Below, piece after piece: positions 48,223-63,688 of a stretch of DNA of 64,000 nt. Location of the stretch: NCBI GenBank assembly GCA_964613035.1, contig CAZTFQ010000007.1, positions 8,409 through 72,408 of the forward strand. The letters are read 5' to 3'. Positions within the stretch are counted from its first letter, which is position 1, and each line of letters opens with the position of its first letter. Under the pieces are notes generated by a model. It saw nothing but the letters and a program-made list of their open reading frames with translations. It was not told the DNA's origin and did not search any database. The position numbers and the translations under genes were made by a program. The stretch is from an uncultured Christensenellaceae bacterium. Its GTDB lineage: Bacteria > Bacillota > Clostridia > Christensenellales > DTU072.

Positions 48223-48242
48223 TAAATAAAAAGAGATTGTTT

Positions 48243-49097
48243 ATGAGACCGTATGTCAGATTTGCCATGCACGATACAATTAACAAAAATTGGCATTTGT
48301 CACGTGCAATATGGGACTACGAAATCATCTATATAGCCGACGGCTCGATGATAGTAGAAGTCGAGAAAAACAAGTATGTCGCAAAACAAGGCGATATAAT
48401 CTTTTTGCGCCCCGACGTGCATCATATACTTAAGAGCGGCAGCGACTCCACTCAACAGCCTCACGTGCACTTCGATTTTTACGAGGACGACATGTCCCCT
48501 ATAATCCCCGTCTCGCTCAAGCCTAAGAAGAATATGACCCCGGAGGAAAAGAGATTCTTCCGCAACGACGATTTGGCTGCAATCGGAGCGGATTTTCCTA
48601 CGGTTATGTCTCTACACGACCACGTGACGGTCCGCAATCTTCTGTATAGGATAATCGATGAATTCCGATTAAAAATGCCCTATTCTCAATCATATATGCA
48701 GGCGCTCCTTCTTGAGATGATAGTTACTATTCAACGCAGCTATACGGCGTCCAAGCAAGGACTCAGCCGAGAGCATATTATCGCATTCGACAGAATTAAG
48801 AAATATATAAGAGACAACGTCGATCGCAATATATCGGTAGACGAGCTGGCAGGGCTTACTTTCCTAAGTAAGTATCATTTCATCAGAGTCTTCACTGCGC
48901 ACTTCGAAGCCACCCCTCATAAATATATAACCACGTTGAGAGTGGAGCGCGCTAAAGAACTATTGCTATACGACTCATTCCTTACGGTAGGGGACGTCGC
49001 CGCTAAAATGGACTTTGACTCTCAGCAGACCTTTTCCGCTTGGTTTAAGAAAAACACATCTTTATCGCCTCTCGATTATCGCCGATTGCACAAATAG
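48243..49097 (+). CDS. AraC-family regulator with N-terminal cupin sensor
   Basis: WDYEIIYI..G, LRPDVHH, HVHFD; C-terminal ISVDELA....SKYHF.R.F...F..TP..Y....RVERAKELL, VA.KM.F.S...FS..FKK....SP..YR. Confidence 0.95.
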   Translation: MRPYVRFAMHDTINKNWHLSRAIWDYEIIYIADGSMIVEVEKNKYVAKQGDIIFLRPDVHHILKSGSDSTQQPHVHFDFYEDDMSPIIPVSLKPKKNMTPEEKRFFRNDDLAAIGADFPTVMSLHDHVTVRNLLYRIIDEFRLKMPYSQSYMQALLLEMIVTIQRSYTASKQGLSREHIIAFDRIKKYIRDNVDRNISVDELAGLTFLSKYHFIRVFTAHFEATPHKYITTLRVERAKELLLYDSFLTVGDVAAKMDFDSQQTFSAWFKKNTSLSPLDYRRLHK

Positions 49098-49194: not shown

Positions 49195-50844
49195 ATGAAA
49201 AAAGCATTTTCGATATTGCTATGCTTGATTTTGATTACATCGGCATGTCTTTGCATGGCGGCTTGCGTAGAGTCAGACCCAGAAGGCGTCACGACAATCA
49301 AAATGTCCGTCGTCTGGAACGGTCTCTCCTATATGGACCCCGACTCGGACGATAATCGCATCGCAGGTATTATGCAAGAGAAGACCGGGGTCAAACTCGA
49401 CGTCAAGTGGGTCAACGGCACGGAAAACGAGCAACTCGTCCGTATTTTTAGTACGGGTCGTAATATGCCCGACGTAATCATGGCTCCTTACTGGGGTGGC
49501 GGCGACGCTTGCAGCGACACTATAAGGAAGGCGGCTCGCGACGGACTCATCGTGCCTCTTGACGAGATGATAGCCGAGTACGCGCCCAATCTTGAAGGCG
49601 CCTACACAACGGGTGTAGCAACCAGCTTTATCGAAAATGAACTTTCCGCGGAAGAATTCGGCGGTAAAAAGTATATCATTCCTATGCATACGCCTAAGAA
49701 TACCGACGAATATCAGAATTGGGGTTATACCGTATATTGCCGTAAGGATATATTAGAAGCCCTCGACGTCGATCCCTCTTCGATTACTTCGTCCGAAGCC
49801 GTCTACGAGCTGGCTAAGAAGATTAAGGCGGGCAACTTCACCGATATCAACGGCAATTCCATTATCCCCGCGTCTTGCTGGGCCAACGGATACGGTGCGG
49901 AGTGCTATATGAATAGTTACAGAACGCACAATATAACCAACGTCGTAGACAAGGGCGATCATTATGAGTGGTCGGCAATGCAGGACAACGTGGAGGAAGA
50001 AGTCCTCTTTATGCAGAAGATGATATCCGAGGGACTCTTTGACAAGACGGCTTTCTCTCACAACGAGACGACTGCTCTATCCAAGCACGTGACAGGAGGA
50101 GTAGGGCTGACCGCAACTCAATATCCTTATATTAAGAAGAATCTTGAAAACACCCTCTACGCAACCAATCCCGAGATGGAGTACGTCCCCCTCGGACCGA
50201 TTCTCGACGCCAACGGCAACGCTTATATGCCTAATACCGTCTATGAAGAAGGCGGCTATTACGGATTTGCCGTGCTGATGGTATCTAAGGATTGCTCGGA
50301 AGAGAAGCTCGTCGCATTGATGAAATATCTCGACTATATCAATAGCGAAGAAGGTATGCTCCTTGCGTATCTGGGAGAAGAGGGAGTAGATTACTATGTA
50401 ACCGACGACGGCGAGTATCGTATGACGGATGAGTTTTTTGCCAACGAAGCTCTCGATCCCGATTACGCATACAATCAAGGTATAGACTCTTACTTCACGT
50501 TCGGCTGCTCCGGAGTGCCGTTCAATACTTTCGAGAGAGCTCGAGCCGAGACAGAAGACCTGACTTATAAGACGGTCAAAGAGATGTATCCCGTAGTGGA
50601 GAAGTCCGGCAGGCGCGCCAGCTCGTGGGACGACGACTTCGAAGATATCGATTATTTGCACGGCATACTCGAGACCATAGATTACTCGCTCACTATCCAG
50701 AGCGCATATTGTGCCTCAACGTCTACGGAAGCTCTAAAAAAACTCAACGATTATCGTAGCGCTATTCGGAGCAAAGGCTATCTCGACGCCTATCTCGGGT
50801 GGTTGTACGCTAAGATAAGCGCGTCCAACGATATACTCTTCTGA
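49195..50844 (+). CDS. Oligosaccharide ABC transporter substrate-binding lipoprotein (LplA-like)
   Basis: Lipobox MAAC. I.EKTGV, MPDVI, G.K.Y.IP, .RKDILE.L, Y..LGP, YL.YINSEEG..L..LG.EG.DY. Confidence 0.9.
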   Translation: MKKAFSILLCLILITSACLCMAACVESDPEGVTTIKMSVVWNGLSYMDPDSDDNRIAGIMQEKTGVKLDVKWVNGTENEQLVRIFSTGRNMPDVIMAPYWGGGDACSDTIRKAARDGLIVPLDEMIAEYAPNLEGAYTTGVATSFIENELSAEEFGGKKYIIPMHTPKNTDEYQNWGYTVYCRKDILEALDVDPSSITSSEAVYELAKKIKAGNFTDINGNSIIPASCWANGYGAECYMNSYRTHNITNVVDKGDHYEWSAMQDNVEEEVLFMQKMISEGLFDKTAFSHNETTALSKHVTGGVGLTATQYPYIKKNLENTLYATNPEMEYVPLGPILDANGNAYMPNTVYEEGGYYGFAVLMVSKDCSEEKLVALMKYLDYINSEEGMLLAYLGEEGVDYYVTDDGEYRMTDEFFANEALDPDYAYNQGIDSYFTFGCSGVPFNTFERARAETEDLTYKTVKEMYPVVEKSGRRASSWDDDFEDIDYLHGILETIDYSLTIQSAYCASTSTEALKKLNDYRSAIRSKGYLDAYLGWLYAKISASNDILF

Positions 50845-50846
50845 TT

Positions 50847-51812
50847 ATGATCAACGTAGGAAGAATTAAAAAGGCAGGAGTAATGCTCCGCCTGGAAAAC
50901 CTCGGCAGAAGCATAATGAAGTACAGACATCTGTATCTCTTCTTGTTGCCTGCCGTAGTGTGGTTCTTTGTGTTTTGTTATATCCCGATGGGCGGATTGG
51001 TACTGGTCTTCAAGGACTACTCGTTCTCCAAGGGCGTCCTCGGTTCCGAGTGGGAAGAGCCTTTGTTGAAAAACTTCGAGTTGTTCTTCAACATGCCCGA
51101 GCTCGGCACTATGGTGACCAATACCATATATATTGCGCTCATACGTCTGGCACTCTTCCCCGCTCCGATAATATTAGCGATAATGCTCAACGAGGTCAAG
51201 AATCCCGTCTTCAAGAAATTTATCCAGACGGTATCGTACTTTCCCTTTTTCATATCTTGGGTCATCGTCGCCTCGATGCTGGAGCAGTTGCTCACTCCGT
51301 ACGGTAGCGGAGGTCCTCTCTACCATATGTTGCAACTCTTCTCCGGTAGTAGCGAAATCAAATATTATATGGTGGACAAGCCGTACTTCTATCCGCTTGT
51401 CGTAGTAACCTATCTATGGAAGACGGTCGGATGGAACTCCATCGTATACCTCGCGTCCATATCCAATATAGATCCGACGCTCTTCGAAGCAGCCGAGATA
51501 GACGGTTGTAGCAGATTCAGAGTTATACGCAAAGTTATTTTGCCTCATTTAAAACCGACGATTATATTGCTATTCGTCATGGCTCTCGGCTCTATTATGT
51601 CGGCGGGATTCGAGCAGATATATTTTCTTCAGACTCCCTCCAACTACGACTATAGCAACGTACTCGACGTCTGGGTAGTCAAATACGGTCTGGAGCAAGG
51701 CAAGTATGCCCTTGCCGCCGTGGCGGGACTGTTCCAGGGACTGATAGGATTGATATTTATAGTAGTCGGCAATACGGTCGTCAAGAAGATCGGAGGTACG
51801 TCGCTATGGTAA
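50847..51812 (+). CDS. ABC permease (LplB/YteP-like)
   Basis: YIPM.G....FKDY, KK..QT.SY.P.FISWV.V, WK..GWNSI.YLA.I..ID..L.EAA.IDG. Confidence 0.93.
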   Translation: MINVGRIKKAGVMLRLENLGRSIMKYRHLYLFLLPAVVWFFVFCYIPMGGLVLVFKDYSFSKGVLGSEWEEPLLKNFELFFNMPELGTMVTNTIYIALIRLALFPAPIILAIMLNEVKNPVFKKFIQTVSYFPFFISWVIVASMLEQLLTPYGSGGPLYHMLQLFSGSSEIKYYMVDKPYFYPLVVVTYLWKTVGWNSIVYLASISNIDPTLFEAAEIDGCSRFRVIRKVILPHLKPTIILLFVMALGSIMSAGFEQIYFLQTPSNYDYSNVLDVWVVKYGLEQGKYALAAVAGLFQGLIGLIFIVVGNTVVKKIGGTSLW

Positions 51813-52735
51813 ATTCCCGAATTAAACCCAAAAGACTATTCAAGCCGTCGCTACCTAAAAAACGGACCTCTCCCGGGGAGAAAGTCTTTTCCGCAATCAA
51901 CGCTATCCTTTTGATAGGACTCGCAGTCACGATGATATATCCGATGTATTACATCATTATATTGTCCTTCAACGACGGCGCCGACGCGCTCAAAGGCGGT
52001 ATATGGCTCTTCCCGAGAGTGTTTACTCTCGATAATTACAAGACGGTCTTCGCCAACGAACAGCTATTGACGGCTTTCGGCATATCGGTAGCAAGGACAG
52101 TCATCGGCACTATCGTATCGGTAATATTGATAGCGATGATGGCGTATGCACTGGCAATCAAAGAGCTGCCGGGGAGAAAAACGTTCAACAAGTTTTTCTT
52201 CTTCACGACGATATTCTCCGGCGGAATGATCCCCATGATCAGCTTGCTCAACAAGCTGGACCTGTTGGATAATCCTCTGGTCTATATTTTGCCGGCAATA
52301 TACTCGTTTTATAATATGTTGCTTATGAGGACGTCTTTCGAAGCCACCCCGAAAGCATTGAGAGAAGCCGCTCTTATGGACGGCGTCAGCGAATGGAAAA
52401 TATTCTTTAAGGTGTATATGCCGCTCAACAAGCCCGTCATCGCAACTGTCGCGCTTTTTACGGCGGTTTTCCATTGGAACGACTGGTTTGCAGGTAGCTA
52501 CTATATCTCTACCGACTGGATGAAACCTGCCGCGACTATCCTTCAAGAGATGCTTCAAGAAGCACTCGGCAACTTGAACAATGCCAGTGCCACTGGCGGC
52601 GCAGCAGTGACAACCACCGCGCAGACTCTCCAGATGGCTTTCGTCGTGGTTATTACCTTCCCGATAATGGTCGTGTATCCCTTTTTGCAGAAGTATTTTA
52701 CAAAAGGCGCCGTTGTAGGCTCCATCAAAGAATAA
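51806..52735 (+). CDS. ABC permease (LplC/YtcP-like)
   Basis: YP.YYI...SF, FSGG.IP, EAA..DG....IF..V..PL.KP, WNDWF, VYPFLQKYF.KG..VGSIK. Confidence 0.93.
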   Translation: MVNSRIKPKRLFKPSLPKKRTSPGEKVFSAINAILLIGLAVTMIYPMYYIIILSFNDGADALKGGIWLFPRVFTLDNYKTVFANEQLLTAFGISVARTVIGTIVSVILIAMMAYALAIKELPGRKTFNKFFFFTTIFSGGMIPMISLLNKLDLLDNPLVYILPAIYSFYNMLLMRTSFEATPKALREAALMDGVSEWKIFFKVYMPLNKPVIATVALFTAVFHWNDWFAGSYYISTDWMKPAATILQEMLQEALGNLNNASATGGAAVTTTAQTLQMAFVVVITFPIMVVYPFLQKYFTKGAVVGSIKE

Positions 52736-52767
52736 CAATCAACCTTAGAAAAAACAAGGAGGTTTTT

Positions 52768-55077
52768 ATGAAAACAAAAAGAGCTGGTAGAATCAAAAAG
52801 AGTTTGATTTCGCTATTGCTTATCTCGATGTTGGTCGTCCCTATATTCGGATGCGACGGCGATCCCGATCGGGGCTCATCGGAAGATAAGGTGCAGTTGA
52901 CGGAGAAAAACGATATGCTCGTATTGAACAACGACTCCGTATCGCTGTCGTTCATGAAGGACAACGGGTCTCTCGTCTCTATCAAGAATGCCTCTTCCGG
53001 TACGGACTATATAGAGGACTCCGAGGGCGGCAATTGGGCGTTGTCTATAGATTTATCTACCGACGATTGCTTCGAGTCTAACCCCACCGGCGCTAATACG
53101 GTCCTCGTCAGCAGCCGTACGCAAAGTATGACTTATAGTAAGACCGATCTCTCCGACGGCATTGCGCTGACTTTCGATTACGCCGTATCCTTCACTTCCG
53201 ACTCGGTTACTTACACGGGCATTACGGTCAAAGAGACCGTTACTCTCAAGAAGGGCGCCTCCGATGCGAGTTTTGCTTACGAAATAACCAACGGCGTCTC
53301 GGGCTCGGTCATAACGACCTTCACGGGAGCCCAAATCTCCGGTTTGAAGAACGACAACGGCGACTATAATCTCTTCTGGCCTTATAAAGAGGGCAAAATA
53401 TACGAGAATGCAGTCAAAACCGTCAAGACCGCCAAGGACGACACCGCCAGAATGGTAGCGGAGTATCCATCTCCCATGTCGATGCAATTGGTACAGCTCT
53501 ACAACGACAAAGAGGCGTTGTATTACTACGTGCCCGACGCGACCAGAGAGTATAAAGAATTCAACTTCGGCGCGTTCATCAACAAGGGACAATATGACTT
53601 CCAAGGAGTGCAGGTGGCGGATAAAGTATCCCTGTCTTGCAGCAGATATCCTTTCATCGAGCCGAATGAAACCAAGTCGGTAGAAGCGGTCATCGGCGTG
53701 TCCGCGCACGGCGATTGGTACGACGGCAGTGACAGATACAGACAATTTTTGATCGATTCCGGCATGACCAGAGCCTCCAATTCTCTTACGGAAGAGTGGA
53801 CGGGATTCTCGGTGCTGATCGGTACTCAATACGGCGATAAGCAATTCGCCGCATATGCTCAGGCGGAAGGCTTCGAAGATACTTACACCAATTGGGCAGA
53901 GAAGACCAATCAATACGGCGTGACAACCACGACTCTTATCGGTTGGCACGCGGGCGGATTCGATTCGATGTATCCCGATTATGAGTTCCAGACCGGGACC
54001 GGATTCGGCGAGGACAACTTCAAGCTGGCTATGGAGCAAGGTCACGCCAACGGCAATACTTTCCTTGCGTACATCAACGCGCATATAGCGGATAAAGAAT
54101 CCAAGTGGAGCAATACCGTTTACAACGCGGCAACGGGCATAACCAATATGGAACAAGCCGCTATCAAGACTAAAGGATTTTCTTCTACTACGGGAAAAGA
54201 CGATTATGTCAATTATATGATGAGAGAGTCTTACGGCACGGGTACTTATTACTATGCCATGTGTCCCGATTCCGAGCTCTTCCGAGACGCTATTTTATCC
54301 GCGGTCGGCAGACTTAGAAAAAACGGCGTCGACGGAATATGGTTCGATCAGTTAATGGAAATGCCTGCCAATCTGTGCTACGACGCCTCACACGGTCACG
54401 AGACGCCCGCTACCGCTTACGGTGAGGGTTACGGGGAACTTTTCGCAGAACTCGAGCGCGTTATGTCTTCCGTATCCGGCGCGTATATGTTCGCCGCGGA
54501 AGGCGTATGCGACGCCTGGATAGAATATGTCGACGTGTGCGGTTATATGTGGTCCAGAAAACTGGGCGCAAGAGATACCGACGGTAAGAATATGTCTCCC
54601 GAGCTTACTCGTTACACAATGCCCGCAACTTTCTTAGGAATAGAGGGCGCAGGGACGACTTCGGGCGATTCGGACGAGTTTGCAAGAGCGTTCGTAATGT
54701 CCGATCCTTTCCTTGCCGATCCCTATAAGCCGTCTGTCGGCAGCCTTACGAGCGTATATGCGCAAGATTCCACTTATCTGACCGGTAGATACGTCGATAC
54801 GTTGGGAGCTATTTCCGACGACGAGTATCTCATATTCGGTCAGACGCTATCATCGGACGGCAAGAAGATTGCGCTCACAGTCTACAACTACAACGACGAG
54901 GCTTCTTCCGGCGCGACGATTAAGCTGGATCTCGATAGGCTCGGACTCGGCGACTGCAAGATAGACTCCGCTATAGAGATGTTCACGGGAGACAAAGTCT
55001 CTTACAGCGGTAGCGTCATTAATCTCCCCGATATAGAAGAACTAGGCATCACGTCAATCCTCATCACACTCAAATAA
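52768..55077 (+). CDS. Uncharacterised lipoprotein, putative glycoside hydrolase (N-terminal beta-sandwich plus TIM barrel, DUF6259-like)
   Basis: Lipobox IFGC. Barrel-like motifs GWH.GG.D..YP.Y, AYIN, MCP, G.DG.W.DQ, AEG..D suggest a GH-like acid pair. Family assignment is from recollection only. Confidence 0.55.
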   Translation: MKTKRAGRIKKSLISLLLISMLVVPIFGCDGDPDRGSSEDKVQLTEKNDMLVLNNDSVSLSFMKDNGSLVSIKNASSGTDYIEDSEGGNWALSIDLSTDDCFESNPTGANTVLVSSRTQSMTYSKTDLSDGIALTFDYAVSFTSDSVTYTGITVKETVTLKKGASDASFAYEITNGVSGSVITTFTGAQISGLKNDNGDYNLFWPYKEGKIYENAVKTVKTAKDDTARMVAEYPSPMSMQLVQLYNDKEALYYYVPDATREYKEFNFGAFINKGQYDFQGVQVADKVSLSCSRYPFIEPNETKSVEAVIGVSAHGDWYDGSDRYRQFLIDSGMTRASNSLTEEWTGFSVLIGTQYGDKQFAAYAQAEGFEDTYTNWAEKTNQYGVTTTTLIGWHAGGFDSMYPDYEFQTGTGFGEDNFKLAMEQGHANGNTFLAYINAHIADKESKWSNTVYNAATGITNMEQAAIKTKGFSSTTGKDDYVNYMMRESYGTGTYYYAMCPDSELFRDAILSAVGRLRKNGVDGIWFDQLMEMPANLCYDASHGHETPATAYGEGYGELFAELERVMSSVSGAYMFAAEGVCDAWIEYVDVCGYMWSRKLGARDTDGKNMSPELTRYTMPATFLGIEGAGTTSGDSDEFARAFVMSDPFLADPYKPSVGSLTSVYAQDSTYLTGRYVDTLGAISDDEYLIFGQTLSSDGKKIALTVYNYNDEASSGATIKLDLDRLGLGDCKIDSAIEMFTGDKVSYSGSVINLPDIEELGITSILITLK

Positions 55078-55103: not shown

Positions 55104-56129
55104 ATGAAATTCGATTTTAATTATCATCGCATACAATCTCGCGCAATCACCGCCGAAAACTTCCACGGAGATAAGGGCATGGGCGGCATGGCTACTGAAG
55201 GTATGGGAAAAATCCCTGCCGGAGATTTGGGCAAGACCTTCAAAATATCTCCCTGTATGCTCGTGCCTAAGCAGACCGACTTCGTTATGTGCGACATCAA
55301 AGGCAGCGGAGAAGTCAACCATATATGGATGACCTGCGCTCCGGAAGCTTATTCGGCGATTATAGAGTTTTATTACGACTGCGCGCAAGTACCTTCGGTC
55401 AGCCTGCCTATCGCTAAGCTCTTCGCTATAGGGTTTGACCGTAAGTCTATAGTCAACTCCCTAATGATCACCGTTAACCCCGCAGGCGGAATGAATCTCT
55501 ATTGGCCGATACCCTTCCGCAAAGGACTCAGAGTCGTGCTCAAGAACGTCACCGACAGCGATATCGTCATTTATTACCAATTCGATTATCAGCTCAAGCG
55601 TATTCCGCGCTCTACTTGCTATTTCCATGCCTTCTACAACGAGTCGTTGCCTCTAGAGGCTAAGAAGAACCATATGCTCCTCAATAAGATAGAGGGCAGA
55701 GGCACGTATTGCGGAACATTCATGACTTTCAAAACCGACTTCACTACCTGGTGGGGCGAGGGCGAAGTCAAGTTTTTCATCGACGGAGACAAAGATTATC
55801 CGACGATATGCGGTACGGGTACGGAGGACTACTTCGGCGGCGCGTGGAATTTCGAGCAACCGCTGGGTACCTACAGAAGCTATTCTACGGCGTATCAAGG
55901 ACTCGTCGACGTCATCCCCGAGGACAAAATATACGTCACGGATCAGAAGTTTTCTATGTATCGATGGCATATATCCGACCCCGTATATTTTGCCAAAGAT
56001 CTGCGAGTCGAGATACAGGCAATAGGTTGGGAAGAAGGTTTACTGCACTATCGTGCGCTGTCTCCCGAGATAACTTCCGTCGCCTACGTCTACCTCGACA
56101 AAATAACCAACGTAAAAAATAAAAAATAA
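55104..56129 (+). CDS. GH172 / DUF2961 glycoside hydrolase (alpha-D-arabinofuranosidase / alpha-D-fructofuranosidase family), cytoplasmic
   Basis: AENF.G.KG.GG, G.G...HIWMT, N..W..PF, YFHA, G.G.Y.G, WWGEGE.KF.IDG, GTGTEDYF.GAW, YRWHI.DP..F..DLRV.IQ. No signal peptide. Confidence 0.88.
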   Translation: MKFDFNYHRIQSRAITAENFHGDKGMGGMATEGMGKIPAGDLGKTFKISPCMLVPKQTDFVMCDIKGSGEVNHIWMTCAPEAYSAIIEFYYDCAQVPSVSLPIAKLFAIGFDRKSIVNSLMITVNPAGGMNLYWPIPFRKGLRVVLKNVTDSDIVIYYQFDYQLKRIPRSTCYFHAFYNESLPLEAKKNHMLLNKIEGRGTYCGTFMTFKTDFTTWWGEGEVKFFIDGDKDYPTICGTGTEDYFGGAWNFEQPLGTYRSYSTAYQGLVDVIPEDKIYVTDQKFSMYRWHISDPVYFAKDLRVEIQAIGWEEGLLHYRALSPEITSVAYVYLDKITNVKNKK

Positions 56130-56149
56130 ACAATTTGGAGGAAACAAAA

Positions 56150-58678
56150 ATGAAAAAATTAACCTATGTGTTGATTATCGCATTGTTGATTGTTTCGCTT
56201 ACCGCTCTAATCGCCTGCGACGACGAAGAAATCCCGTCGGGGACTCCTTCCGGCAGCGAATTAGAAGTGTCCGAGCGTACGATCAACGTGACCGTACTCG
56301 ACGGTTCTGCGGCTGTGTCGGGAGCAGGGGTCTATATCCGCTCGACCGATTACTCCGCGACAACCGACGCCTCGGGTAAATGTCAATTGGTTTTATCTGC
56401 TGACGACTCCTCCGCCGATTATTATTCTCTCATCGTCAAGAAGACCGATTACCTCGATGCCGGTTACAAAGTCAATGCTTCGGACTTTAGCGACAACGTA
56501 GCAGACGTCACCGTCTCTATCTATACCGAGGACATCGTTATATCGGGTTCCGTCTCATGCGGAGACGTCGCTTTACAAGACGTACTCGTATCGGTATCTT
56601 CGGACGACGCGACCGCTATAACGGATAAAGACGGCAACTACTCGCTCGTCATCCCTCGTCCCATAGAGAGCTTCTCGATAACTTTCTCCAAGTCTCTATA
56701 TGCCGATTATAGCTTAGAGATCACCGACCTTGAAAAATCTCTCTACACCGTCAATGCGGTTCTTAGCGAGAATTCCTTCAACGTAGAAGGTACCGTCGCT
56801 CATTACTTCAACGGTGCAATCGACGGCGCTACCGTCAAAGTCGTCGGCACCGATACATCCGTGACGACCGATAGCGAGGGCAACTTCTCTATATCCGATA
56901 TCAAGGGGCTCGATCTTCCTTATCGACTTGCAGTTACCAAGACCGGTAGTCAGACCGCAATCGTCAAGGTGGAAGAAGCCGACGCCGAGCTGGAGATAGA
57001 GCTCGTCGACGATCCCGTCAAACTCGGCATCCTCTCCCCCAGCAACAAGAATTACTCAATGTCCGTCGTGCGCGACTCCAAAGGTATATGGTTTTATTTC
57101 GACAGCGCGTTCCAATTTGTCGATGGCGATAAACTGTGCATCTACATCGACGTCAACGAAACGGGCACCGTCTCCGTAGGCAGCAGCGTACTGGAGTTTG
57201 CCCTGTGCGGGGACTGCGATGCCGAAGGCAATCCTATCGCACTTGTTTGGAATCTTAAAACAAGCCAATCGGTAACCGAAACTGCCGAAATCGAATGGGG
57301 TAAAGAAGTTATTTACAACCTATATAACACAGAAGAAGGGTCGTATATAGAGGCATTCATCTCTTATGACGTCTTCGCCAAAGCCGGCGCTGACTTCGCT
57401 ATCGACTACAAGTCCGTAGTGGGCATATCCTTCTTCGACCGTGGTTCAAACAGTTCCGGTGCCGTGGGCTGGGACAGCGCGGACTTCCCCGGAGCCGACG
57501 GTGCCAATTGGGTACATCCCGACAGACCTTACGACTTCGTCCGTCTCGCTCCCGAGAACGTCATCTACGAAGCCGCCGACAATACCTACGTACCTTATAT
57601 CGACTATAACGTCGTCATTAACGTCCAAGACGAGGAAGGTAACGCCATTAACGGAGCCTCCGTCAATATGGTCTATCCTTACGAGATTTCCAAGATAGCA
57701 GAAGAAGGCGAAGTCGCTTTCGTCCTCAACGGAAAATATTTCAATAAGGAGCCTCGCTTCACCGCTATTGCGGAAGGATATGCAATGGCATCCGTAACGA
57801 TCGCCAGAACGGAATTCGTCGACGGCTCGACGGTAGTCGACATAACGCTCAAAGAAAACGACGTCATCCTTAGCGGCACGGGAAAAGTATCATCTTTGTC
57901 GGGCGCTCTTCAGGGAGTATCCGTATCCGTAGAGGGCTATGAAGGCTCCGTGCTTACCGACGCCGACGGCTCTTATGACATTTCTACTCTCAATATCGAC
58001 GCTAAGGGATTATCTTCTTATCAACTCGTTTTCAGTAAAGACGGTTACGACAACAAGACCCTTAACGTCACCATCGGCATGGAAATAGACGACGTCACGA
58101 TGCTTGCCGAGGCTCGCAATCTGGGGACTTTCGGAAATTATGGTTGGAACGTCACCATAGATCGTAGCGAAACCAAGCTCATCGTTGATCTCGTCAGTGC
58201 TCATAACTGGTACGGAAAGACCGATCTGGACGGCAATACTACTTTTAGCGAGAACGAACTTCAGATATATTTCGTCACCGATCTTACCGCTAAATCGAAA
58301 ACCGCCGACGGATTAAGAGAACTCACGATAGTAGAAAAGGTTTCTCAAGGCGGTACCGACTGGGCAGGCTGGAGAGACGGTAGCAGAAGCTTCCTCACCT
58401 GGCCCGGAATTACCTATAGCGTATACAACGGTGACGACGGATGTAAGGTCCATGTAGAAGTTGCGTACAGCCTTCTCGGAATAGATAAGGGTGACACCGT
58501 AGGTCTGGCTCTCGGCGAGTGGTACGGTCAGGAGACGGCTAAGTGGTCTTGTCCTTTCTATACCAGCGGTACGCAGACTTTCGTAACCTCGGGCTGGGCA
58601 GTTAACGTCAATGATCCTTCCACGTCCCTTCACTGGGCGGCAGATAACTCCACCAAGGTAGTATACGTCGCAGAATAA
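56150..58678 (+). CDS. Non-catalytic-looking surface lipoprotein with repeated carboxypeptidase-regulatory-like (Ig/TTR-like) and DOMON-like domains
   Basis: ATG 56150, lipobox LIAC. Repeated (V/I).G.V......(L/V).GA.V......TD..G.(Y/F).(I/L) units; two sugar-binding-like domains (YIEAFISY..., VEVAYSLLG). Confidence 0.7.
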
Positions 58679-58739: not shown

Positions 58740-60359
58740 ATGACCGAAGAAAACAGAATAAAGAAGATCGAACTGAAGAAGAACGAAAAAATTCATCTAG
58801 AGATGATAGAAAATCAACTTCTCAACAGAAGATTGGTTAAGATCGCCCCCGAGGACGTCTGCATATCGTTCAAGAATATCAACAAGATATACCCCAATCA
58901 TAAGCAGGCGGTATTTGATTTCGATTTGGACATAAAAGAGAAAGAATTCATCGTATTCGTAGGTCCGTCGGGTTGCGGCAAGTCTACGACTCTCAGAATG
59001 CTCGCGGGATTAGAGGATATCACGTACGGAGACCTCTTCATCGACGGCAAGTACGCCAACGACCTTATGCCCAAGGAGCGCGACGTCGCGATGGTCTTCC
59101 AAAACTACGCCCTCTATCCCAATATGAGCGTCTATGACAATATGGCTTTCTCCCTACAAGCGAGGAAGTATGACAAAAAGGAGATAGATAAAAGGGTAAG
59201 GCACGCCGCGAAGATCTTAGAGATAGAAGAATATCTCGACGTCAAGCCTGCCAATCTGTCGGGCGGTCAGAGACAAAGAGTCGCGCTCGGAAGAGCGATT
59301 GTTCGTAATGCTAAAGTTTTTCTTATGGACGAGCCTCTCAGCAATCTTGACGCCAAGTTGAGAGTACAGATGCGTAGCGAGATAGTCAAACTTCACAACC
59401 AAGTGGGAGCCACTACGGTGTACGTCACTCACGACCAGACCGAGGCAATGACCATGGCGACCAGGATAGTGGTAATGAAAGGCGGATATGTCCAACAGAT
59501 AGGCACGCCCAAAGATATCTACAACAATCCTTCCAACGTTTTCGTCGCTAAGTTTATCGGTTCGCCCGCAATGAACGTACTCGACTGCGTCATAGAAGAC
59601 GGCTCTATAGTCTTGCCCAACGGTCTTATTATACCCCTCACTGAGGCAAGACTCTCCGCTATCAAGGACTTCTATATCGACGAAATCGACTCTACGGAGA
59701 AGAATATCGCCGCACTGGAGCAGGAAATAGAGGATCGCGAATACGAGCTCACTCACCCCGATTACGTTAGAGCCGCAATTGCCTTCGACAAAAAACGTAA
59801 CAAAATATCTTCCGAGATAGCCAAGTTGAGTGAAAAAATTAAAAAAGCCAAGCGCTCGTTTAAGGGCGACGACGTCATAGCGCCTCTTCAAGAGTCGTTG
59901 AGCCGTAAGAATGCAGAGTATGCGACATTCGTCGAGGAGCAAGAGGCTCTCCTTAAGTCGACGGAGTATAAGGAAGTCGTTCCGCGTAATTACGACAAGA
60001 TTCGAAACACCGACGATTATCTCAATATCTATCGTCAGGACTTAGAGAAACTCCGCGCCGACCTCAAGTATTACAAGTCGTGTGCGGCAGGAGAAAACAC
60101 CGCCTATCTATTCGGTATCCGCCCGGAAGAAATCTACTTCGACAACGATTCGGACGGATTGTCGGAGGAGTTTTCCGCCGATATTACCGTGGCGGAATTA
60201 TTGGGACACGAGTACTTCATCCACTTCAACGTAGGAGATACCGACGTTACCGCCAAGCTCAATACCGAGGAACTCGTCGCGGGACAGACGATCGGGCTGA
60301 AGCTAGACCTCAAATATCTGCATATATTTGACAAACATAGCGAAAAACGCATTTTTTAG
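58740..60359 (+). CDS. Sugar ABC transporter ATPase (MsmK/MalK-like) with ~150-aa helical insertion
   Basis: [83 protein letters not shown]. Confidence 0.93.
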
Positions 60360-60372
60360 ATAAAGGTGTAAT

Positions 60373-60957
60373 ATGTACAAAGATTTACTTCAAGACATAA
60401 TGATAAAAGAGCGTGACTCCGTCAATGCGCTCATCGAGTCGACTAACACTCAATACGACGAGGTCATAGAGACTTTGCTTAACTGCAAGGGCAAGGTAGT
60501 ATTCTTCGGAATCGGCAAGAGCGGTCATATCGGAGAGAAACTCGCCGCGACGTTTTCCAGTACTGGCACACCGTCTATATTCGTCCACGCGGCAGAGGCT
60601 CGTCACGGGGACTTCGGGATGATAGAGGCTCGCGACGTCGTCATATTGATGTCTCATAGCGGTACGACTTCAGAGACGGTCTCCGCCGTCGATACCCTCA
60701 AGACGATAGGCTGTAAGACGATAGCTTTTTGCCGAGACGGAGACACGACTTTGGCTAACCGATGCGATCTCCGTATAGGATATCCTTTCGGACAAGAGGC
60801 AGATCCTATGGGGGTTGCGCCCAGCAGCAGCACGACCGTGCAGTTGGTGCTAGGCGACGCGATAGGATTGACGCTGTCCTCTCTCAAGGGCTTCACCAGA
60901 GCGGATTTCGGCAAATTCCATCCGGGCGGAACTTTAGGGAAAATGCTCAATAAATAG
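60373..60957 (+). CDS. SIS-only D-arabinose-5-phosphate isomerase (KpsF/GutQ family, no CBS domains)
   Basis: G.GKSGHIG.K.AAT.SSTGTPS.F.H..EA.HGD.G, SHSG.T.E, AP.SSTT..L..GDA, DF..FHPGG.LG; the protein ends where the CBS pair would begin. Confidence 0.88.
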   Translation: MYKDLLQDIMIKERDSVNALIESTNTQYDEVIETLLNCKGKVVFFGIGKSGHIGEKLAATFSSTGTPSIFVHAAEARHGDFGMIEARDVVILMSHSGTTSETVSAVDTLKTIGCKTIAFCRDGDTTLANRCDLRIGYPFGQEADPMGVAPSSSTTVQLVLGDAIGLTLSSLKGFTRADFGKFHPGGTLGKMLNK

Positions 60958-61023
60958 TATTTGAGTTTTGGGTAACCGTATCGTATAATTAAGTAGACTA
61001 AACAAGGATTTTAGGAGAAAAAG

Positions 61024-61917
61024 ATGAGTATACTCGTAGTGGGAAGTTTCGTGACGGATCTGGTAGCGACCACCGACAGAGCCCCGGAGGCGGGCGAATC
61101 CGTCAGAGGCAATTCTTTCAACATATATCAAGGAGGCAAAGGCATCAATCAAGCCGTTGCGGCTAAGCGTATGGGTGCCGACGTTATTATGGCAGGGTGT
61201 CTGGGCAACGACTCCTTCGGCGATGACTTCATCAAGACAATCGAGGCAGAGGGGATGTCTACCGAGTATATCAAGAGATCGGATTCGGCTACCGGGTGCA
61301 GTCTGATAGTATTGGATAAAAACGGGCAGAATCGTATCTGTATGACTCCGGGAGCCAACCTCGACTATGCTACGGAAGACTTATACGGTATCGAGAGTCT
61401 GATAGAAGATGCCGACGTCGTCGTTACGCAATGCGAGATGATTCCCGAGATTGTCGATGAATTAGCCGCACTGTGCTCTAAGCACAATAAGAAGTTCATT
61501 CTCAATCCGGCTCCCGCAAGAGCTTTGAGCGACGAGGTGATCTCCGCTACTTACGTTATTTCTCCCAACGAGACCGAGCTGGGAGTGATTATCGGTAGGA
61601 CGCTAGTCAGCGACGAGGATTATATATCGGGTGCTCGAGAGTTGCTCGATAGAGGCGCCGACAACGTCGTCGTAACTCTCGGGAGCAGAGGAAGTCTTCT
61701 CGTCAATAAAGACGTCGTCGAGATAGTCCCGGCTAAGAAAGTCAAAGCCGTAGACACGGTAGGCGCGGGAGATTCTTTCACAGGGTCTCTGGCTGCCTTC
61801 ATAGCAGAAGGCAAAGATGTTTTGTCCGCGATGAAACTCAGTACTGCAGTAGCCGGACTGCAAGTCACTCGTCGCGGAGCCATTCCATCTATGCCGTATA
61901 GAAAGGAGATAGAATAA
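61024..61917 (+). CDS. Ribokinase-family pentose kinase (candidate D-arabinose kinase)
   Basis: GSFVTD, GGKGINQAVAA, GND.FG, LNPAPA, PNETE, VTLGSRG, VDTVGAGDSF. Confidence 0.88.
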   Translation: MSILVVGSFVTDLVATTDRAPEAGESVRGNSFNIYQGGKGINQAVAAKRMGADVIMAGCLGNDSFGDDFIKTIEAEGMSTEYIKRSDSATGCSLIVLDKNGQNRICMTPGANLDYATEDLYGIESLIEDADVVVTQCEMIPEIVDELAALCSKHNKKFILNPAPARALSDEVISATYVISPNETELGVIIGRTLVSDEDYISGARELLDRGADNVVVTLGSRGSLLVNKDVVEIVPAKKVKAVDTVGAGDSFTGSLAAFIAEGKDVLSAMKLSTAVAGLQVTRRGAIPSMPYRKEIE

Positions 61918-61930
61918 GGAGTTATTACTA

Positions 61931-63688
61931 ATGAAAAAGTCATTAAAAATATTTATGATTACCGTAGGAATAATCGTTTTGTTGCTATGCTTGATTATTG
62001 CAGGTTGCGACGAAAAACACACTCATAGTTACGTTATTTTTTCGACTTATAAAGAGGCTTCTTGTACGGAAGAGGGCGAGACGCGAGTATATTGCGAATG
62101 CGGCGAGTATATTTCCGAGACCATATCGGCTCCGGGGCATGACTACGGAGAGTGGACTACGATAGAAGAAGCCACCGTTACCGATGACGGGAAAAAACAA
62201 CGCGAGTGTTCTCGTTGTTATGATATAGATGAGCGGATTATCCCTGCCACAGGTGTATCGGTATCCGCATATCCGTCGGTCTACGTGTCCTTCGACAATC
62301 CGGACAACAACGGCAACTTCTATGACTGTATTTCAGGCGACGCTATCTACAATCACTTGGGCGTATCCGAAGCGGAAGGTCGGTCGTCAAAAGGCGCTGT
62401 CTTCGACGGCACCGATTATTTGGAGATAAGTGCGGCTGCTCCGACGAGCAATTCCGCCTATACGGTCTCTTGCTGGATCAAGATCGATACGACGTCTCTA
62501 GAGACCGGTCGAGAGTACGTGATAGTAGGCTGGGGCGACGCTACTTCCAATCAAGGAACTGCGTTGACTGTCAAAAACAATCGTCTCTACGCAACCTTCT
62601 TGACTAATAGACCGGTATGCGATCTGCCTTCTGACTGCGCAACGGTCTGGCATCACGTCGCACTGACTTACGACGGCGCTACGCATAAATTGTACCTCGA
62701 CGGCGACGAAAAGTCTTCTCTCACTCTTACCAACGGTATGGAAATAAGCGAGTCTCCTATATATGTCGGCGGATTGGACGGAGAAAAGAATTATTGCGGA
62801 AAAATAGACGAGCTGATGATATTCAACTCGGTAATAAACAACGAGGAGATAGTATATTATATGGATAATATAGGCAACTTAAGACTAAGCAATCCCACCA
62901 ACGACATCCCCGTTTCGGACGGGAAAAAACAATTCGACGTCAACGGAACGTACATCACCAACGGCTGGAATAGGTTCTATTACGAGTACAACGGCACAGA
63001 GCTCGGCGTAGCCGTACATTTGCCCAGGAATTACGACCCCTATAAAACCTATCCGCTGCTTATATCGCTGCACGGCGACGGATATCTTAACAAGACCCTC
63101 GATCAGATAATGACCTGCGGTGATAATAACTTTGCAAAAAGCGCCATGTCTCTAGGCGAAGATTGCATAATCGTCATGCCAAACGCAGGGACGGAAGTTT
63201 GGCTCTATGTACCCGATATTAAGCAATATGTAGACAATCAATATCTTTCTAGAAGTTACGATATGTCGACAGCTGTCCCCAGTGCTGAATTGAATGCGGT
63301 CGACAATCTCATAGACGTACTTATCGCCAACTACCCCGTCGATAGAGATAGAGTCTATCTCGCGGGATATAGCAGAGGTTGTATGGCGTCTTTTTATCTG
63401 ATGAATAAGAATCCCGAGCGTTTTTCCGCGGCAGTGCTTTGCTGCGGAGCGGGCGATTCCTCTATAATGCCCGACTTGGCATCCATACCGCTTTGGTTCT
63501 ATTGCGGAGACCAAGACAACCTCGTATACTACAATGACTTCAAAAAACTCTACGACATATACGTAGAAGCAGGTGGTCAGGGACACTTCACAACCTGCCC
63601 CGGCGGCGACCACGGAGCCCCCGCTAGCTACGTCAACAACAATACGGAACTTATCGAGTGGGTCTTCTCACAGAAGAAATCTTCTTAA
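61931..63688 (+). CDS. Lipoprotein: His/Cys surface repeat, LamG/ConA-like domain and alpha/beta-hydrolase (esterase) domain
   Basis: Lipobox IAGC. H.HSY....ASCTEEG...C.CG repeat; YTVSCWIK...WHHVALTYDG..LYLDG...IDELMIFN (LamG). Esterase motifs PLLISLHG.G, D.DRVYL.GYSRG, GDQD, GGDH. Confidence 0.85.
   Translation: MKKSLKIFMITVGIIVLLLCLIIAGCDEKHTHSYVIFSTYKEASCTEEGETRVYCECGEYISETISAPGHDYGEWTTIEEATVTDDGKKQRECSRCYDIDERIIPATGVSVSAYPSVYVSFDNPDNNGNFYDCISGDAIYNHLGVSEAEGRSSKGAVFDGTDYLEISAAAPTSNSAYTVSCWIKIDTTSLETGREYVIVGWGDATSNQGTALTVKNNRLYATFLTNRPVCDLPSDCATVWHHVALTYDGATHKLYLDGDEKSSLTLTNGMEISESPIYVGGLDGEKNYCGKIDELMIFNSVINNEEIVYYMDNIGNLRLSNPTNDIPVSDGKKQFDVNGTYITNGWNRFYYEYNGTELGVAVHLPRNYDPYKTYPLLISLHGDGYLNKTLDQIMTCGDNNFAKSAMSLGEDCIIVMPNAGTEVWLYVPDIKQYVDNQYLSRSYDMSTAVPSAELNAVDNLIDVLIANYPVDRDRVYLAGYSRGCMASFYLMNKNPERFSAAVLCCGAGDSSIMPDLASIPLWFYCGDQDNLVYYNDFKKLYDIYVEAGGQGHFTTCPGGDHGAPASYVNNNTELIEWVFSQKKSS

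Follow-up and report, generated by a model that had tools for sequence, protein, structure and literature searches.

The arabinogalactan and lipoarabinomannan (LAM) of mycobacteria have D-arabinan as their core. To our knowledge, only three enzyme families are known to degrade this polymer (GH183, GH172 and GH116). The D-arabinan-active enzymes of these families were discovered between 2021 and 2023, and they are already in use for dissecting the mycobacterial envelope and LAM antigens.

Microbacterium arabinogalactanolyticum and Dysgonomonas gadei have D-arabinan loci that combine an enzyme at the surface or secreted, an ABC importer, a GH172 that stays in the cytoplasm, an isomerase and a kinase (PMC10509167). 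GH172 enzymes of the ExoMA1 type do not accept the polymer as a substrate, and Asn253 of ExoMA1 blocks the hydroxymethyl group of fructose and excludes fructofuranose (PMC10509167). The enzyme on which GH172 was founded is an alpha-D-fructofuranosidase (PMC8605356).

We analyzed a 64,000-nucleotide stretch of DNA (the window) from an uncultured Christensenellaceae bacterium. It contains an operon in which the gene for a 769-aa lipoprotein of the family DUF6259 occupies a place like that of GH183 in the D-arabinan loci described in Shimokawa 2023 and Al-Jourani 2023. Loci of that type carry GH183 and GH116, and neither was found in the source genome, which is 93% complete, although a GH183 gene may fall in the missing part; the same search (PF13810) recovers GH183 in other genomes.

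The DUF6259 gene and its operon

All genes and features described here lie on the + strand of the window. The cluster is headed by an AraC-family regulator (48237–49097; Pfam HTH_18 and AraC_binding), which is found at the same place in related loci. It is followed by an ABC importer (49195–52735) consisting of a 549-aa solute-binding lipoprotein (Pfam SBP_bac_1) and two permeases (each matching BPD_transp_1), and the importer genes are likewise kept upstream of DUF6259 in related loci. The DUF6259 gene (52768–55077) is an open reading frame of 769 codons that starts 32 nt past the second permease gene (51806–52735) and ends 26 nt ahead of the DUF2961/GH172 gene (55104–56129). Its Shine-Dalgarno sequence AAGGAGG (52757–52763), located 5 nt 5' of the ATG, is a strong ribosome-binding site. 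The encoded N-terminus, MKTKRAGRIKKSLISLLLISMLVVPIFGC, has a basic n-region and a hydrophobic stretch followed by the lipobox IFGC (signal peptide and lipobox, 52768–52854; Cys29 codon, 52852–52854). Cys29 is invariant in an alignment of 32 homologues, and the protein reads as a bacterial lipoprotein that would be lipid-anchored at the cell surface. The initial annotation's description of a lipoprotein directly between the permeases and GH172 is thus borne out by the frame, the ribosome-binding site, the lipobox and the short gaps.

The downstream GH172 (Pfam DUF2961, E 6e-72) is a candidate ExoMA1-like exo-alpha-D-arabinofuranosidase. It matches ExoMA1 (PDB 8IC8) at E 7e-95, compared with 2e-27 for alphaFFase1, and the Asn of its GGAWNF motif is the counterpart of ExoMA1 Asn253. 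No signal peptide was found in this protein, which we take as cytoplasmic. Next is a gene for an 847-aa surface lipoprotein (56135–58678; three matches to Pfam CarboxypepD_reg) with tandem Ig/transthyretin-like beta-sandwich domains. Its AF2 model is all-beta, and Foldseek matches it to pilins and adhesins and to no glycosidase fold. This protein is non-catalytic and probably has a binding or scaffold role, and the adhesin/pilin-like fold led us to reject it as the true depolymerase.

The operon continues with a 539-aa MsmK/UgpC-type ABC ATPase (58740–60359; Pfam ABC_tran, OB_MalK and TOBE_2; NCBIfam UgpC and MalK). A SIS-only phosphosugar isomerase of the arabinose-5-phosphate isomerase (API) type and a ribokinase-like PfkB kinase follow (60373–61917). 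For the SIS protein the PDB matches are 5uqi (E 2e-57) and the API structure 2xhz (E 4e-39), and the kinase matches ribokinases at E 3e-55. A further gene (61931–63688) encodes a lipoprotein with an N-terminal lipobox, a LamG-like domain (Pfam Laminin_G_3) and an alpha/beta-hydrolase esterase domain (Pfam Esterase, PF00756). In D-arabinan loci a GH172 specific for alpha-D-arabinofuranose (alpha-D-Araf) is clustered with an oligosaccharide importer and with genes for D-arabinose catabolism, and this operon has the equivalents of all three.

Fold, remote homology and predicted catalytic residues

The 769-aa protein matches Pfam DUF6259 (PF19773) over residues 305–591 (E 1.1e-26; 94.2 bits, cut-off 28.7), and a six-frame search of the whole genome returned the same result. 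The family has 716 clusters at E<=1e-3. Neither DUF6259 nor DUF5696 is mentioned in the searchable literature, and DUF6259 is an uncharacterized family without an assayed member. The gene context of one 1179-aa representative (P0063) is uninformative, and another (P0070) has just a sulfatase beside it. The sole other Pfam match of the 769-aa protein is a weak one to GLGE_C; it matches neither Pfam Melibiase (GH36), nor the GH129 model PF11308 even at E<=10, nor DUF4185/GH183 (PF13810).

The AlphaFold (AF2) model of the protein (pLDDT 88.6, pTM 0.90) consists of an N-terminal all-beta, galactose-mutarotase-like domain (residues ~43–312; 52894–53703), a catalytic barrel of (beta/alpha)8 type with alternating strands and helices (residues ~318–665; 53719–54762), and a C-terminal beta-sandwich domain (residues ~673–769; 54784–55074). 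The N-terminal domain has profile matches to a GH38 beta-sandwich and a mutarotase-like protein and aligns with the N-domain of ZgGH129, and the C-terminal domain has profile matches to the C-domains of alpha-amylase and neopullulanase. The GH183 enzymes (EndoMA1/2 and DgGH4185a/b), in contrast, are beta-propellers with no sequence or fold kinship to this TIM barrel. A GH183-like reading was therefore rejected, in agreement with the initial annotation, which had set the protein apart from the DUF4185 endo-D-arabinanases.

Foldseek places the model closest to ZgGH129 (E 1.6e-24, TM 0.53/0.60), with the alpha-galactosaminidase FpGalNase of GH36 as the runner-up. Further matches are to GH36 alpha-galactosidases, to the GH129 enzyme NagBb (E 2e-20) and to GH101, and for the three families as a group E ranges from 1e-24 to 1e-18. 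At the sequence level the relationship emerges with family profiles. A phmmer search of the PDB with the single 769-aa sequence gave zero matches and a 32-sequence profile gave marginal matches only, and a 147-sequence profile was needed for clear ones (ZgGH129, E 9.7e-10; NagBb, 9e-7; GH36, 4e-6 to 1e-4). In hhalign the DUF6259 family aligned with ZgGH129 homologues over 456 columns (probability 98.3%, E 1.2e-14). Against four Firmicute PF11308 proteins, which themselves have no NagBb match in the PDB, the probability was 46% and the alignment covered the N-domain only. Some ZgGH129 homologues match PF19773, PF18952 and PF11308 together. DUF6259 is thus a remote homologue of the GH129, GH36 and GH101 retaining alpha-glycosidases and not an orphan fold.

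The closest described enzyme by both fold and profile is ZgGH129 (DagB; GH129; Pfam DUF5696; PDB 5opq and 8rzk), the alpha-1,3-(3,6-anhydro)-D-galactosidase of Zobellia galactanivorans. It has the same three-domain layout, but identity to DUF6259 is only ~15–17%. This marine flavobacterium uses it as an exo-enzyme in breaking down carrageenan, whereas the context of DUF6259 is of the D-arabinan type. The GH36 enzymes (AgaA/AgaB, AgaSK and FpGalNase; Foldseek E 1e-24 to 1e-20) also share the N-beta/barrel/C-beta architecture, at ~11–12% identity; their acid/base is an Asp on a later strand. GH129 NagBb, an alpha-N-acetylgalactosaminidase of Bifidobacterium bifidum (PDB 5wzn), and the endo-alpha-N-acetylgalactosaminidases of GH101 (EngBF and SpGH101) match the fold at E 1e-20 to 1e-18 and have the motif GW-x-GG(F/Y)D-x-x-(Y/H)PDY in common with DUF6259. 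However, they act on mucin O-glycans, and mucin-related genes are absent around the DUF6259 gene. All characterized GH129 and GH36 enzymes known to us are exo-acting pyranosidases and GH101 frees a disaccharide; we know of none that acts on furanosides.

In GH129 and GH101 a Glu acid/base sits on the barrel strand after that of the Asp nucleophile (PMC5698469, PMC8106489), and the predicted arrangement in DUF6259 is alike. The motif GVDGIWFDQ (residues 520–528; 54325–54351) contains the predicted nucleophile Asp527 (codon 54346–54348), and AAEGVCD (residues 576–582; 54493–54513) contains the predicted general acid/base Glu578 (codon 54499–54501). In the AF2 model these residues lie at the ends of strands 523–527 and 574–579, and in hhalign they align with Asp486, the nucleophile, and Glu517 of ZgGH129. 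Both are invariant among the 32 homologues, and each is kept in 154 of 156 family representatives (99%) down to ~20% identity, which is far more conservation than chance predicts. The last Asp of the second motif, Asp582, is kept in 148 of the 156, and about 20 further barrel residues are nearly invariant among these very divergent proteins, including the cytoplasmic ones. The initial annotation had picked out both motifs and this Asp/Glu pair, and the choice agrees with the ZgGH129 alignment and with their place in the predicted barrel.

A second signature is formed by C499, C537, H542 and H544 (54262–54399), conserved in 92%, 94%, 99% and 96% of the 156 representatives, respectively. The C537–H544 loop is an insertion without a counterpart in ZgGH129, and C499 is likewise missing there in the hhalign alignment. 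Together the four residues make up a Cys2His2 cluster adjoining the nucleophile, a possible metal site.

Related loci and co-occurrence with GH183

More than 14 distinct loci, at 27–80% identity, have DUF6259 adjoining GH172. An ABC importer is usual in these loci, and a ribokinase-like kinase and an arabinose-5-phosphate isomerase are often present, the SIS and PfkB pair of the window being seen again. Nearly all of these DUF6259 proteins have a signal peptide and most have the lipobox Cys, while none of their GH172 partners has a signal peptide. The fructofuranose-excluding Asn is retained in 13 of 14 partners. DUF6259 had been proposed as a partner of GH172, and the conserved pairing with ExoMA1-like GH172 across related loci supports that proposal. 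In one Selenomonadaceae locus (L023), a pair of GH32 genes immediately precedes DUF6259 and GH172.

GH183 is found in 5 of 13 genomes with this DUF6259 subfamily, compared with 1 of 301 genomes drawn at random from the phylum (Fisher p 3e-7). The closest relative has a second, parallel operon encoding AraC, a solute-binding protein, two permeases, a GH183 lipoprotein, an esterase lipoprotein, GH172, SIS and PfkB, in which the GH183 lipoprotein fills the position of DUF6259. In the two closest relatives the DUF6259 operon occurs together with GH183 and GH172 in the genome and GH116 is absent; GH116 is found in some other DUF6259-bearing genomes. A single locus in one further genome (G308) encodes a cytoplasmic DUF6259, two secreted GH183 enzymes and GH172. 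The equivalent position in the parallel operon fits the earlier suggestion of a non-homologous stand-in for GH183. However, the coexistence of the two families in genomes, and once in one locus, indicates that DUF6259 is not a simple substitute, and the two probably have different specificities. The majority of distant DUF6259 proteins are cytoplasmic and encoded beside ABC permeases, so the ancestral role looks like trimming of imported oligosaccharides.

Proposed function and alternatives

The link between DUF6259 and D-arabinan is well supported. Our main reading, to which we assign a probability of about one half, is that the surface DUF6259 protein is a retaining glycoside hydrolase whose endo-type attack on D-arabinan feeds the importer. 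Outside the cell, the enzyme would cut a polymer containing D-arabinofuranose, the D-arabinan of either arabinogalactan or lipoarabinomannan from actinobacteria, and free oligosaccharides that the adjacent ABC transporter would take up. The cytoplasmic ExoMA1-like GH172 would trim these to D-arabinose, whose conversion to ribulose 5-phosphate would fall to the ribokinase-like kinase and the SIS-only arabinose-5-phosphate isomerase. Hydrolytic activity, the D-arabinan substrate, endo-type oligosaccharide release and metal binding are all four predictions, the endo action being deduced solely from location and operon logic. Three observations favor a depolymerase: the one other large surface protein of the operon has no catalytic domain and an adhesin-like fold, neither GH183 nor GH116 was found in the 93% complete genome, and a GH183 lipoprotein takes the DUF6259 position in the parallel operon of the closest relative. 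On the other side, the characterized relatives are exo-acting or disaccharide-releasing, and the majority of distant DUF6259 members are cytoplasmic.

The activities of the characterized relatives fit a surface exo-acting or debranching glycosidase that makes no internal cut in the backbone and removes a cap, branch or decoration of D-arabinan refractory to GH172. Candidate targets include terminal beta-1,2-D-Araf caps, an alpha-1,3 branch, a capped disaccharide, or a substituent other than arabinose, for example alpha-GalN or mannose, and an alpha-galactosaminidase is the second-best fold match. GH183 endo-arabinanases accompany DUF6259 in the 5 of 13 genomes and within the one locus described above, and the two closest relatives, with GH183 and GH172 and no GH116 beta-D-arabinofuranosidase, leave such a role open. 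However, some DUF6259 genomes do carry GH116, and the superfamily cuts alpha-D-type anomeric bonds, which would suit alpha-D-Araf better than beta-D-Araf. The source genome would moreover be left with no endo-enzyme making oligosaccharides for the importer and GH172, and ExoMA1-type GH172 does not attack the polymer itself (PMC10509167). We consider this explanation rather unlikely, but a serious competitor.

It is improbable, in our judgment, that the substrate is some other furanoside, such as alpha-D-fructofuranosides, difructose anhydrides, or a fructan-derived or unknown D-Araf glycan from food or microbes. This reading was prompted by the GH32 pair in the Selenomonadaceae locus, which counts against D-arabinan, and it draws on the founding GH172 activity (PMC8605356) and on the fructokinases among PfkB kinases. 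We downgraded it because the window GH172 is far closer to ExoMA1 than to alphaFFase1, the fructose-blocking Asn is kept even in the GH32 locus, the kinase resembles ribokinases, the SIS protein is of API type, and GH183 is strongly enriched among genomes with this DUF6259 subfamily. Gram-positive sugar loci often encode surface lipoproteins that are binding proteins, and the family has no demonstrated activity, so DUF6259 could also be an inactive glycan-binding protein on a glycosidase scaffold, with depolymerization left to another protein or to community members. However, the operon already encodes a solute-binding protein and an adhesin-like lipoprotein, and near-invariance of the Asp/Glu pair and barrel residues across 156 members is the signature of an active enzyme, which makes an inactive binder very improbable.

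The initial annotation also proposed a new glycoside hydrolase family. What stands is an uncharacterized surface lipoprotein that is catalytically equipped and glycosidase-like, with a glycosidase TIM barrel in the model. The fold is not wholly new, however, since Foldseek and the family profiles returned the known superfamily, if remotely, and any new family would fall inside it. Such a family within the known superfamily is plausible. A fuller proposal, which we hold tentatively, is that DUF6259 is a new family and, within the GH129/GH36/GH101 superfamily, the first with a furanoside as substrate. Its surface clade would cleave alpha-D-arabinofuranan with a linkage specificity beyond those of GH183, GH172 and GH116, using the Asp/Glu pair with the help of a Cys2His2 metal site specific to the family. 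Gut Firmicutes would thereby have another, independent way, their second, into cell-wall arabinan of the mycobacterial type.

In many gut Firmicutes DUF6259 is the neighbor of a GH172 predicted to digest D-arabinan, which makes it a good candidate for a new D-arabinan-active family. If this is true, it would be a fourth and structurally unrelated D-arabinan family with a different cleavage pattern, and a tool for cell-wall analysis and LAM-based diagnostics research. DUF6259, with its more than 700 sequence clusters, would be given a function, and GH129/GH36 superfamily chemistry would reach furanosides, possibly with a metal site. It would also mean that small-genome gut Clostridia, the Christensenellales and others, feed on actinobacterial cell walls.

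Gene cluster and lipoprotein gene

The gene at 52768-55077 (+ strand) is an open reading frame encoding a 769-aa protein, with a consensus Shine-Dalgarno sequence (AAGGAGG) 5 nt upstream. The N-terminus, MKTKRAGRIKKSLISLLLISMLVVPIFGC, reads as a lipoprotein signal, and Cys29 is invariant in an alignment of 32 homologues. Upstream of the gene is the second of two permease genes belonging to an ABC importer, and downstream a DUF2961/GH172 gene. The open reading frame, the invariant cysteine and the flanking genes bear out the initial annotation of a lipoprotein placed between the permeases and GH172, and the two motifs quoted there, GVDGIWFDQ and AAEGVCD, are present at residues 520-528 and 576-582.

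The cluster consists, in order, of an AraC regulator, a 549-aa SBP, two permeases, the DUF6259 lipoprotein, GH172, an 847-aa lipoprotein, an MsmK/UgpC-type ATPase (58740-60359), a SIS-only isomerase, a PfkB kinase, and a lipoprotein with LamG-like and PF00756 'Esterase' alpha/beta-hydrolase domains (61931-63688). The window's GH172 matches the exo-alpha-D-arabinofuranosidase ExoMA1 (PDB 8IC8) at E 7e-95 and the fructofuranosidase alphaFFase1 at only 2e-27. The Asn of its GGAWNF motif corresponds to ExoMA1 Asn253, which blocks the fructose hydroxymethyl group (PMC10509167). By its matches to 5uqi (2e-57) and 2xhz (4e-39), the SIS protein is an arabinose-5-phosphate isomerase-type enzyme, and the kinase is ribokinase-like (3e-55). 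The predicted fold of the 847-aa lipoprotein is a string of Ig/transthyretin-like domains similar to pilins and adhesins, and neither this model nor the fold search revealed a catalytic domain. The ATPase has 539 aa compared with approximately 370 in typical MsmK/UgpC members, the surplus lying between the nucleotide-binding and TOBE parts. The long form is retained in relatives (543-560 aa in loci L001, L010 and L011).

Fold and catalytic residues

The lipoprotein matches Pfam DUF6259 (PF19773; E 1.1e-26) and no NCBIfam model. The family comprises 716 clusters (50% identity, E<=1e-3), and our literature search found no paper mentioning DUF6259 or the related DUF5696. The modeling and fold search proposed in the initial annotation gave a confident barrel: the AlphaFold2 model, built from an alignment of 32 homologues (pLDDT 88.6, pTM 0.90), places an alternating beta/alpha barrel between two beta-sandwiches, one N-terminal and one C-terminal. 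Against the PDB, Foldseek returned only retaining alpha-glycosidases of a single superfamily, namely GH129 (ZgGH129 at E 1.6e-24, and NagBb), GH36 (FpGalNase and alpha-galactosidases) and GH101. None of these is detected from the lipoprotein by single-sequence search; a profile of 147 DUF6259 sequences matches ZgGH129 (E 9.7e-10), NagBb (9e-7) and GH36 (4e-6). ZgGH129 is itself a DUF5696 protein. Some of its homologues are matched by the DUF6259, DUF5696 and GH129 models alike, and DUF5696 also matches some close homologues of the lipoprotein.

Profile-profile alignment of the DUF6259 family with 29 ZgGH129 homologues (98.3% probability, E 1.2e-14, 456 columns) pairs D527 with ZgGH129 D486 and E578 with E517, both of which are essential by mutagenesis (PMC5698469). 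D486 is the counterpart of the NagBb nucleophile D435, and the Michaelis complex 8rzk was obtained with the D486N mutant. Among 156 DUF6259 representatives, reaching down to about 20% identity, D527, E578 and H542 are conserved at 99%, H544 and W393 at 96%, D582 at 95%, D399 and C537 at 94%, and C499 at 92%. In the model, the conserved residues are located at, or just past, the C-terminal ends of barrel strands. Because of this alignment, conservation and placement, a putative catalytic acid pair, on which the initial annotation had staked its proposal, can be recognized in the barrel. ZgGH129 lacks the inserted loop in which C537, H542 and H544 lie; with C499, these residues may form a Cys2His2 metal site next to the predicted nucleophile.

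DUF6259 relatives and the GH183 operon

In loci retrieved by protein identity or peptide patterns, DUF6259 relatives (27-80% identity) adjoin GH172 or stand one gene away in Christensenellales, Tyzzerella, Oscillospiraceae, Aristaeellaceae, Selenomonadaceae and others. Nearly every DUF6259 protein there carries a signal peptide, usually one with a lipobox; the GH172 partners never do, and 13 of 14 partners have the arabinofuranose-type Asn. SIS and PfkB are again found together in five or more lineages. The secreted, GH172-adjacent proteins form one large clade, and two further deep branches of the tree include GH172- or GH183-linked members. Among 301 random genomes of the phylum, DUF6259 and GH172 each occur in 17, with both in nine (Fisher p 1e-8). 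The distant DUF6259 proteins of this sample are cytoplasmic, and none is encoded next to GH172; therefore, the whole family extends beyond the function considered here. A Bacteroides thetaiotaomicron control genome has DUF6259 and lacks GH172.

Several individual loci differ in composition. In three loci (L019 8471-9934, L023 12267-13688, L021 11497-12948), a 473-487-aa protein separates DUF6259 from GH172; its Pfam matches are weak 3keto-disac_hyd or Ig-like ones, none of them confident, and it may be a further conserved partner. An Izemoplasmatales MAG (L013 9854-15419) carries three tandem secreted paralogues, 39-44% identical to the lipoprotein, after importer genes, the contig ending inside the third. 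In the Selenomonadaceae genome (L023 5337-10013), two GH32 genes directly precede DUF6259 and a GH172 with the arabinofuranose-type Asn. As beta-D-Fruf and beta-D-Araf differ only in the hydroxymethyl group, we speculate that these GH32 enzymes might be beta-D-arabinofuranosidases rather than fructanases. On Bacteroidota metagenome contigs (L005, L006), a DUF6259 lipoprotein of 23% identity belongs to a SusC/SusD-type PUL that also includes an ECF sigma/anti-sigma pair, and its neighbors are a NamZ-like gene (exo-beta-N-acetylmuramidase family) and a polysaccharide deacetylase, another cell-wall-flavored context. At L028 (4337-12019) a cytoplasmic, 30%-identical protein (P0060) accompanies a ROK regulator, a PF00756-type esterase, a Gfo/Idh/MocA oxidoreductase and an AP_endonuc_2 (xylose-isomerase-like) protein; these neighbors depart from the D-arabinan pattern, and oxidative processing of sugars may be involved.

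A single DUF6259 and a single GH172 are present in the window's genome (1.65 Mb, 93% complete), in which neither GH183 (DUF4185 endo-D-arabinanases) nor GH116 was found; the same GH183 search does find the family in other genomes. GH183 occurs in 1 of the 301 random genomes compared with 5 of 13 that carry the lipoprotein's DUF6259 subfamily (Fisher p 3e-7), and therefore ties the subfamily independently to D-arabinan. GH116 occurs in 4 of the 13 and is absent from the two closest relatives. The closest relative (G301), whose DUF6259 is 78% identical, carries another operon with the same layout (locus L050; contig C1 47000-66900), running AraC, SBP, two permeases, CBM protein, GH183 lipoprotein, esterase lipoprotein, GH172, SIS (82% identical to the window's) and PfkB (80%). 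Its GH183 and DUF6259 operons, both of D-arabinan type, each have their own AraC, importer, GH172, SIS and PfkB; thus the two enzymes occupy equivalent positions in paralogous systems with separate importers and GH172. The window's genome appears to retain the DUF6259 version only. Another Christensenellales genome combines a very divergent cytoplasmic DUF6259, an importer, two secreted GH183 and GH172 in one locus.

The L050 esterase lipoprotein (10760-13219) is related to the window's in its N-terminal part and has a GDSL esterase domain instead of PF00756, a family that includes mycolyltransferases. A surface esterase may strip arabinan of its acyl (succinyl or mycolyl) groups.

Proposed role of the lipoprotein

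Together, the GH183 and GH116 distribution, the parallel operon and the shared locus suggest that DUF6259 enzymes act on D-arabinan-type substrates, that they probably have a specificity other than that of GH183, and that their cellular location varies. The lipoprotein is most likely a surface-anchored retaining hydrolase that would release D-arabino-oligosaccharides for uptake by the importer. This role is proposed because the lipoprotein lies outside and GH172 inside, because ExoMA1-type GH172 enzymes do not attack polymer (PMC10509167), and because the genome encodes no other depolymerase. As the main alternative, the surface enzyme would have an exo or debranching activity. Fructosides are an unlikely substrate, given the closer match of the window's GH172 to ExoMA1 than to alphaFFase1 and its Asn at the position of ExoMA1 Asn253. 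A non-catalytic function is also unlikely for a protein with the D527/E578 pair.

The initial annotation had envisaged a new glycoside hydrolase family. At the family level DUF6259 stands as such a candidate; its fold and profile matches to GH129, GH36 and GH101 place it within a known superfamily, and as a kind of enzyme it is not categorically new. A D-arabinan-type substrate would probably be a new substrate class for this superfamily.
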